Positions 942 to 985 of a DNA stretch of 37,017 nt are shown here, piece by piece (the stretch's first letter is position 1; each line of letters begins with the position of its first letter). The stretch is from a virus. Both the position numbers and the translations under genes were made by a program. The notes under the pieces were generated by a model. The model saw only the letters and a list, made by a program, of their open reading frames with translations. It was not told the origin of the DNA and searched no databases. The stretch is taken from IMG/VR virus record IMGVR_UViG_3300045988_143004; one strand, written 5' to 3'.

Positions 942-985
942 ATTATAGCATATTATGTTAATTATGTGTGTCGAAATTTGTCGAT
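942..985 (-). promoter_or_regulatory. Promoter with tandem Spo0A boxes: aTCGACA-aat-TTCGACA, 21 nt, TGcTATAAT (extended -10)
   Basis: On the plus strand TGTCGAA is at 969-975 (7/7) and TGTCGAT at 979-985 (6/7). The -10 (plus-strand attata) is at 942-947, preceded by TG. The 18-mer 967-984 is identical to 18377-18394. Confidence 0.55.

Follow-up and report, generated by a model that had tools for sequence, protein, structure and literature searches.

Tandem Spo0A-box promoters ahead of a Spo0E-like gene and other cargo in a temperate phage of gut Clostridiaceae: a candidate route of prophage feedback on sporulation

The viral record IMGVR_UViG_3300045988_143004 of the IMG/VR database raises the question of why one 18-bp element should stand in identical form ahead of two unrelated small genes of the same phage, and which regulator would read it there. 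The element, TGTGTCGAAATTTGTCGA, is composed of two head-to-tail 0A boxes, the binding sites of the sporulation regulator Spo0A, and the genes that follow it encode a 48-residue Spo0E-like protein and a 95-residue zinc-ribbon protein. By the window we mean the whole stretch of DNA that was analysed, 37,017 nt in length. The answer that we favour, with a probability of about 0.65, is that both genes are transcribed from sigma-A promoters activated by phosphorylated Spo0A (Spo0A~P), through which the prophage would feed back negatively on the entry of its host into sporulation. This answer proceeds from the sequence and geometry of the sites, their conservation, the specificity of their orientation and spacing, and the company of genes of the Spo0A-regulon type in which they are found.

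Layout of the two promoters

Exact copies of the 18-mer occur twice in the window, on the plus strand at 967-984 and 18377-18394, and no third copy is found when up to three mismatches are tolerated. Two copies were obtained in none of 100 dinucleotide-preserving shuffles (mean 0.03). A preliminary description of the stretch had already placed the element at these two positions, each time upstream of a minus-strand cargo gene, and both statements are confirmed by the window search, the shuffles and the gene coordinates (Table 1). Both copies have a 7+3+7 structure with a 10-bp period. In particular, three of the four boxes of the two promoters match the heptamer at 7/7 positions, and the fourth (ATCGACA) matches at 6/7 with its G/C core intact. 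The heptamer TGTCGAA occurs four times in the window, three times within the tandem sites and once at 326-332. Moreover, a position-by-position scan of the whole phage for Spo0A sites, as suggested by the same description, recovered these two tandem sites only at a threshold of at least 13/14, with no tandem site in the immunity region; at 11/14 or better, a shuffled window yields about 2.5.

The TGTCGAA core is bound by Spo0A of Bacillus subtilis and Clostridioides difficile via G2, C4 and G5 (PMC3485338), and a Spo0A footprint spanning two boxes 3 bp apart, with 25-30 bp protected, has been documented in phage Nf (PMC2731898). The 18-mer is an exact match to this consensus in tandem form and is therefore a predicted site for a Spo0A dimer. 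Three other identities were considered and rejected, namely a LexA box, since there is no GAAC-N4-GTTC palindrome; a sigma-H promoter, since the -10 element is a textbook extended -10 of sigma-A type; and a CI operator, since the operators of this phage are a different palindrome.

In gene orientation, each tandem site is followed after exactly 21 nt by an extended -10 element (TGCTATAAT in promoter 1 and TGATATACT in promoter 2), a point of the preliminary description that the coordinates bear out. Both promoters therefore combine a good sigma-A -10 with a -35-like hexamer displaced to 21 nt and overlapped by a 0A box. When the two promoters are aligned, identity is limited to the 18-mer and to TGnTATAnT, the remainder having diverged; the shared part would thus be a functional core and not a recently copied segment, and recent duplication of a long segment is ruled out on the same ground.

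The Spo0A~P-activated promoters of spoIIE and spoIIG in B. subtilis have a similar layout, in which 0A boxes in the TTCGACA orientation overlap a displaced -35-like hexamer that lies 21-22 nt, not 17, from a good -10. Their activation reportedly depends on a contact of Spo0A~P with sigma-A, in work attributed to York in 1992, Baldus in 1994 and Schyns in 1997. The likeness to spoIIG in particular, drawn in the preliminary description, holds for the displaced -35 and fails for the spacing, 21 nt being the figure for spoIIE and 22 that for spoIIG. The phage promoters differ from these models in having no second upstream site, in possessing a TGn/TRTG extended -10, and in driving cargo genes of a phage in place of sporulation genes. 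In addition, their boxes are consensus or one base off, whereas spoIIE and spoIIAA of B. subtilis have no 100% match to the core (PMC3485338), a difference that predicts a low activation threshold for the phage promoters.

In the mechanism proposed here, each 18-mer would act as a high-affinity site for one dimer of phosphorylated Spo0A, with the proximal box taking the place of the -35 element in a sigma-A promoter. At 21 nt from the -10, TCGACA would be beyond the unaided reach of sigma region 4, and the TRTG/TGn extended -10 would permit a weak, -35-independent docking of RNA polymerase, to which a Spo0A~P dimer at about -50 to -34 would supply the missing sigma-A contact and so bring about transcription. 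The resulting transcript, short and mostly self-contained, would stop at its own terminator. A promoter and a terminator of its own would make expression of each gene possible from an otherwise repressed prophage, and since the boxes are so close to consensus, the response is predicted to begin while Spo0A~P is still low, as the host passes into stationary phase. The 48-residue product is expected to dephosphorylate or block Spo0A~P and, as a Spo0E-type antagonist, would close a negative feedback loop on sporulation entry, by which the lysogen would sporulate later or not at all. The zinc-ribbon membrane protein would be co-regulated with it. In B. subtilis, spo0E itself is controlled through AbrB, and hence only indirectly by Spo0A.

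Table 1. Positions of the promoters, cargo genes and other features in the window
Feature	Position	Strand	Remarks
Tandem boxes, promoter 1	985-969	minus	ATCGACA-AAT-TTCGACA
Distal 0A box, promoter 1	979-985	minus	ATCGACA, 6/7 to TTCGACA; about -50 to -44 from the inferred start
Proximal 0A box, promoter 1	969-975	minus	TTCGACA, reverse complement of TGTCGAA; about -40 to -34, displaced -35 position
Spacer, promoter 1	968-948	minus	21 nt
Extended -10, promoter 1	942-950	minus	TGCTATAAT; TGC before hexamer TATAAT (947-942), exactly 21 nt from proximal box
Tandem boxes, promoter 2	18395-18379	minus	TTCGACA-AAT-TTCGACA
Distal 0A box, promoter 2	18389-18395	minus	TTCGACA, 7/7
Proximal 0A box, promoter 2	18379-18385	minus	TTCGACA, 7/7
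Spacer, promoter 2	18378-18358	minus	21 nt
Extended -10, promoter 2	18352-18360	minus	TGATATACT; TGA before hexamer TATACT (18357-18352), exactly 21 nt from proximal box
Spo0E-like gene	779-925	minus	48 aa; SQKLD = SxxxD signature; ribosome-binding site GGGTGA 936-931
Intrinsic terminator of the Spo0E-like transcript	770-801	minus	-16.3 kcal/mol, z = -5.5
Weak terminator-like hairpin and U-run	991-1019	minus	after the upstream SecB-like gene, insulating promoter 1; -9.5 kcal/mol, z = -3.3
Zinc-ribbon protein with hydrophobic C-terminus	18030-18317	minus	95 aa, GTG start; Zn_Ribbon_1, 32.2 bits; inserted in head module
Intrinsic terminator after the zinc-ribbon gene	17996-18021	minus	-12.2 kcal/mol, z = -4.6
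tRNA-Trp	17914-17987		follows the zinc-ribbon terminator
XRE-type helix-turn-helix (HTH) protein with C-terminal Spo0E-like domain	415-738	plus	107 aa; SHVID motif; convergent with the 48-aa gene
Single perfect 0A box	326-332	plus	TTCGACA; the likely start site of the HTH-Spo0E gene is about 60 nt downstream
Three-gene unit upstream of the Spo0E-like gene	1008-2315	minus	200 aa (phrog_14664), 87 aa, SecB-like 138 aa (Pfam SecB, 37 bits)
Minor head protein	18557-20050	minus	SPP1 gp7-like, Phage_min_cap2
Palindrome TTTCACATTTTGTGA, three copies	33443-33465, 33687-33709, 33737-33759		around CACA-N4-TGTG; flanking the divergent Cro-like and CI-like genes
Abi-alpha abortive-infection gene	34174-34971	plus	132.7 bits; between repressor and integrase
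ImmA/IrrE-like metalloprotease	35214-35621	plus	21.7 bits vs cutoff of 22; between repressor and integrase
Integrase	35632-36708		
Match to 3' part of a host tRNA gene	36830-36877		past the integrase gene; probably tRNA-Thr(CGU), read by eye
Inverted copies at the window ends	1-119, 36899-37017		perfect, 119 nt

The two cargo genes and their products

The feedback part of the proposal depends on what the 48-residue protein is. The alternative that survives best accepts the promoters as real and takes their product for an unrelated small helical protein with no sporulation feedback, a view that we consider unlikely although far from negligible. The protein scores 19.5 bits against the Pfam family SpoOE-like (PF09388), under the cutoff of 23, and has no family match in PHROGs or NCBIfam; a tblastn search of deposited phages gave no match. 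Its AlphaFold single-sequence model is one continuous helix (pLDDT 93), which is uninformative and is not the Spo0E hairpin, and weak, unspecific matches are usual for short helical proteins. Set against this is the motif S32-Q-K-L-D36, whose S, Q and D are invariant across 12 diverse relatives, nine of which match SpoOE-like and no other Pfam family (best E = 1e-5). SxxxD is the signature of the Spo0E family, in which the Asp is critical, and the length of the protein is similar to the 53 residues of C. difficile Spo0E (PMC11115286). When a profile of the relatives is compared with the PDB, the best match is the Bacillus anthracis Spo0E-like protein 2bzb, weak (E = 0.077) and with the motif in register. 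In addition, the adjoining gene encodes a second Spo0E-like domain that is above the cutoff, and in one locus (L048) a Spo0E-like domain is joined to another small family behind the same promoter. The Spo0E-like peptide first described at 779-925 accordingly has the signature of the family but a sub-threshold Pfam score. Chromosomal Spo0E of C. difficile and Bacillus is a small two-helix SxxxD protein that inhibits Spo0A and sporulation (PMC11115286), from which the protein described here differs in being phage-borne, 48 residues long and sub-threshold in Pfam.

The adjoining gene encodes an XRE-type protein whose C-terminal domain passes the Pfam SpoOE-like cutoff with 28.9 bits. The single perfect box upstream of this gene is kept in two diverged variants of its promoter, and in relatives a second, inverted box (TGTCGAA) is added 18 nt upstream of it; the corresponding heptamer of the window is TGTCTAA (301-307). 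0A boxes are therefore present at three places in the phage, and its Spo0E-type genes number two.

The zinc-ribbon gene lies between the minor head protein and scaffold genes, and the relatives of its product have a TM2-type C-terminus. The 48-residue gene is situated at the genome end. Terminators are found 3' of both cargo genes and upstream of promoter 1; upstream of promoter 2 no clear terminator was found, and read-through from the late genes is also possible there. The cargo adjoining the Spo0E-like gene varies among related prophages. On this arrangement both genes look like morons, that is, cargo with its own promoter and terminator. The resemblance to prophage morons lies in the small promoter-gene-terminator units, placed between modules or at a genome end and variable among related phages; the difference is that the promoter is here read not as constitutive but as a regulated, recurring cassette linked to a single developmental regulator of the host.

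Upstream of the Spo0E-like gene, the three-gene unit at 1008-2315 is exchanged for other cargo in related prophages. Its final gene, coding for a SecB-like chaperone, recalls toxin-antitoxin-chaperone modules. The minor head protein next to the zinc-ribbon gene carries a C-terminal domain of the ADP-ribosyltransferase exoenzyme type (PF03496, 29.5 bits).

Spacing, orientation and gene company of the design

IMG/VR was scanned with a pattern that leaves the distance between boxes and -10 free (TCGACA-N3-TTCGACA, a gap of 6-34 nt, TGnTAnnnT). The matches listed, at least 120, gave 97 unique promoters, a number that excludes loci already fetched with the 18-mer. Among these, the spacer between proximal box and -10 hexamer is 21 nt in 43 cases and 17 nt in 17, the latter nearly all belonging to one lipoprotein promoter family of phages of about 36% G+C; spacers of 11 and 34 nt account for six promoters each, those of 20 and 22 nt for two each, and any other length for four at most. 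A control with reversed boxes returned 99 stretches across all IMG/VR, with a flat distribution of spacings and two at the equivalent gap. The forward peak at 21 nt beside a flat and rare reverse arrangement indicates that distance and orientation are both fixed, which corresponds to the needs of an activator that touches RNA polymerase and is more than a repressor requires. The positions left free by the pattern can be followed in 165 unique promoters, where the base before the distal TCGACA is T in 63% and so completes the heptamer, the free bases of the -10 tend to TATAAT, and a T-R-T-G motif appears at -16, as is typical of Gram-positive sigma-A promoters.

Phage Spo0E-like genes were also fetched independently of the promoter, by the peptide pattern IL[KRH]QS[QKR]x[LIV]DK alone. 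Tandem boxes of at least 13/14 stand at 22 of the 34 loci so retrieved, and a further nine match at 11/14, with one box perfect in the examples checked; a -10-like hexamer at the fixed 21-nt offset is present at 31-33 of the 34. Thirteen lineage representatives retain T.TtCgACAaatTTCgACA-N18-TG.TAtAAT while the sequence of the spacer drifts. The same test applied to the zinc-ribbon family found perfect boxes at 34 of 46 loci, but in only about 4 of 12 lineages, from which the promoter would be a module joined to some members of the family and not to others.

The exact 18-mer lies upstream of at least 7 different small cargo genes in phages, and the design as a whole upstream of at least 20 unrelated small cargo families; the scan of related phages suggested in the preliminary description has therefore found the same design before many unrelated cargo genes, with its spacing and orientation constrained. 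Clustering of 182 downstream open reading frames from phage and genome matches gave families of Spo0E-like proteins (19 members), zinc-ribbon/TM2 membrane proteins (14), 'KKxWWFW' membrane proteins (13), 57-62-residue proteins ending in ...SLKYIS... (12), small zinc-ribbon proteins (8) and DUF4190 proteins (5), in addition to 53 singletons. In genomes, the fixed-geometry pattern returned at least 120 stretches, with about 17 expected (18 specified bases, 596 Gb, uniform model); about 110 of the 120 matches listed are labelled Bacillota, and their G+C content goes from 22% to 64%. The genes downstream of these listed matches include those for Spo0E-like proteins (ten), orphan HisKA/HATPase sensor kinases (four) and ComK (two, 149 bits), one each for a receiver-domain protein and a LexA-like protein (the latter judged by eye from its N-terminal sequence), and three SirA homologues (PF10747, 35.7 bits vs a cutoff of 26) in three metagenome-assembled genomes. 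Since SirA of B. subtilis is 'produced under Spo0A~P regulation' (PMC4285326), these homologues serve as an internal positive control for activation.

Some variants of the design were observed alongside. In the 17-nt class, found in six named loci and others on phage contigs of about 36% G+C and formed almost entirely by one promoter family before lipoprotein or membrane-protein genes, TCGACA is able to act as a normal -35, and Spo0A would be expected to repress there and not to activate. Three 0A boxes in 10-bp register, or an extra TTCGACA inside the spacer, were seen in two viral loci and five genomes, and such third boxes explain the minor peaks of the spacing histogram at 11 nt and at about 31-34 nt. 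A phage family richer in G+C (five loci) likewise has the exact 18-mer, before a 47-residue open reading frame (MGKIEFITRIQVNG…) and with no recognisable sigma-A -10 at 21 nt. In Bacillus phage vB_BanS_Nate (OK499992.1, 37784-37819; locus L364, 601-636), TTTGACA-AAT-TTCGACA is followed after 7 nt by TATAAT, upstream of the site-specific recombinase gene gp100. This is a canonical TTGACA-17-TATAAT promoter whose spacer holds a perfect 0A box, and a candidate for repression by Spo0A in a phage of B. anthracis.

Two side observations concern the proteins themselves. The 57-62-residue family (…SLQMIKxL…EYNKL…SESLKYIS…), recorded at eleven loci, is among the commonest behind the tandem-box 21-nt promoter and has no Pfam or NCBIfam match; in L048 one of its members is fused to an N-terminal Spo0E-like domain, and the family may represent another modulator of the sporulation pathway. 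In a different virus (IMGVR_UViG_3300023497_000171; locus L217, 302-565), an approximate query sequence found a product 42% identical to the DNA-binding domain of B. subtilis Spo0A (residues 171-258), so that this phage may carry a homologue of the Spo0A C-terminal domain.

A second alternative keeps Spo0A~P as the ligand of the boxes and reverses its effect: it would repress, the genes being on in growing lysogens and off at the commitment to sporulation. We judge this to be improbable. An extended -10 with TRTG can work without a -35, so that the promoters may be constitutive, and the boxes cover the places expected for sigma region 4 and for the C-terminal domain of the alpha subunit; moreover, the 17-nt class with its possible -35 exists, a 0A box does lie within the canonical promoter spacer of phage Nate, and the only phage 0A boxes that have been studied experimentally, those of phi29 and Nf, repress (PMC2731898). 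For repression, however, mere overlap suffices, yet the boxes have a fixed orientation and a spacing of 21 nt, promoters at 18-20 or 22-24 nt being almost absent among the matches listed. A displaced -35 overlapped by a 0A box is, besides, the layout of the Spo0A-activated spoIIE and spoIIG promoters. The same design also precedes kinase genes, Spo0E-type genes and SirA, which is induced by Spo0A~P in B. subtilis (PMC4285326).

Still less probable, finally, is that some other regulator (the HTH-Spo0E fusion, the CI repressor or a further response regulator of the host) uses the direct repeat as its operator. A repeat period of 10 bp does suit many response regulators, an XRE-type regulator gene does adjoin the Spo0E-like gene, and control of phage spo0E by adjacent HTH receptors has been proposed (bioRxiv 10.1101/2021.07.15.452460), yet the match is exactly to the Spo0A consensus, the phage operators are the three palindromes of the immunity region, the relatives L008 and L009 keep an identical promoter while the adjoining HTH genes differ or are absent, and the occurrence of the design in genomes of 22% to 64% G+C (Clostridia, Oscillospiraceae, Bacilli) and in many unrelated phages needs a regulator conserved across Bacillota.

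Activation by host Spo0A~P, which the preliminary description had put forward, is thus supported in the parts of it that can be tested computationally, namely the consensus match, the fixed spacing and orientation, and the company of SirA, Spo0E, kinase and ComK genes. Several points weigh on the other side. In addition to the possible constitutive activity of an extended -10 and the repressive precedent of phi29 and Nf, they include the low Pfam score, the weak structural match and the uninformative model of the 48-residue protein. The presence of spo0A in the host rests on family-level taxonomy: when homologues were sought with a Spo0A of gut Clostridia (from L066) as the seed, 7997 proteins came back, none of which was tied to the host contigs, and the regions upstream of the spo0A genes so recovered yielded nothing useful. 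Many loci in the comparative sets are related, and counts of unique promoters therefore overstate independent events. Finally, the two scans that establish the pattern list at least 120 matches each, so that their taxonomic proportions describe a partial, non-random sample.

The phage, its host and relation to known systems

The window holds the genome of a temperate siphovirus of 26-32% G+C. The plus strand encodes the ImmA/IrrE-like protease, the Abi-alpha gene and the CI-like repressor; on the minus strand lie a Cro-like gene and the genes for replication, packaging, head, tail and lysis. The copies of TTTCACATTTTGTGA presumably serve this phage as operators and bear no relation to the 0A boxes. 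The two ends of the window are inverted copies of each other, and in another assembly (L354) window positions 36672-37017 are followed by 8 nt (TCTTATAT) and then by position 107 onward, which indicates that the true genome is a circle of about 36.9 kb and that positions 1-106 arose by fold-back during assembly, with the short palindrome AATAATAAAATAA / TTATTTTATTATT as the probable seed. On a further contig (L359, 1700-2100), window positions 36697-36877 run into a host tRNA gene: phage sequence stops at about 36877, and the remainder of the tRNA follows, then host genes for YkuD/SH3, DUF2651 and a short-chain dehydrogenase. This is the attachment site, and the two junctions together indicate that the phage exists both as a circle and integrated in a tRNA gene.

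Related prophages with the same Spo0E module adjoin at least seven different host neighbourhoods. The exact 48-residue protein was found in 573 blocks of public assemblies, with host contigs of up to 492 kb, in samples that look like human gut from their cohort-style names. Proteins of the host flanks carry the NCBI name 'Clostridiaceae bacterium', and the host is an uncultured member of this family; one host flank (L009) encodes a Spo0E-like protein. No deposited phage matched 20 kb of the window by megablast, and the blastn matches of the 50-nt promoter among deposited phages are nearly all AT-rich noise. By tblastn of the major capsid protein, the Anaerostipes phages AC844P1-3 come nearest among isolates, at 75%, which is too far for their biology to be transferred.

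0A boxes in phages are already known (PMC2731898; PMC12991052). Phi29 and Nf provide a parallel, as phages that are coupled to host development by sites which the host's Spo0A binds, some of them paired boxes with 3 bp between (PMC2731898). Those, however, are virulent Bacillus phages in which the boxes repress early promoters and block late activation and replication, the genome being trapped in the spore, whereas the temperate Clostridiaceae phage appears to use its boxes positively and for accessory genes only, with none at the lysis-lysogeny switch by the window scan. Homologues of host brakes on Spo0A~P are likewise carried by other temperate Firmicutes phages, in the form of the rap-phr systems of phi3T and relatives and of viral spo0E and abrB (bioRxiv 10.1101/2021.07.15.452460; PMC10075063). 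In particular, Bernard and colleagues reported many matches to a Spo0E hidden Markov model (HMM) in the Gut Phage Database and proposed control by adjacent quorum-sensing receptors (same sources). No Spo0A boxes or Spo0A-dependent promoters are described in that work; here, the predicted input is the very regulator that the product should inactivate. A full-text literature search of incomplete coverage returned no description of Spo0A-box promoters on prophage cargo, nor of a loop from Spo0A to a phage Spo0E. What the locus offers, then, appears to be a new and seemingly widespread combination of regulator, promoter architecture and cargo family, each of them already known.

A broader proposal can be put forward only tentatively, at somewhat less than even odds. 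Temperate phages of gut Clostridia and other Bacillota would share a portable Spo0A~P-responsive cassette (TTCGACA-N3-TTCGACA, 21 nt, TRTGnTATAAT) placed before dozens of unrelated accessory genes, by which prophages would read the exit of the host from growth; Spo0E-like cargo would push back, and the SLKYIS proteins would be new modulators of sporulation.

Sporulation governs the persistence and host-to-host spread of many gut Firmicutes, and interference by prophages is known mainly from Bacillus models. If the promoters respond to Spo0A~P, the prophage cargo of gut Clostridia would be wired to the developmental master switch of the host and would not consist of constitutive passengers. If the feedback operates as proposed, phage Spo0E proteins could set sporulation thresholds or create heterogeneity among lysogens, and the sporulation of abundant uncultured gut commensals, hence their spore-borne transmission, would be altered by their prophages. 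If true, the 43-nt sequence rule would also predict Spo0A-controlled genes in uncultured Bacillota and their phages, several uncharacterised families of small proteins among them.

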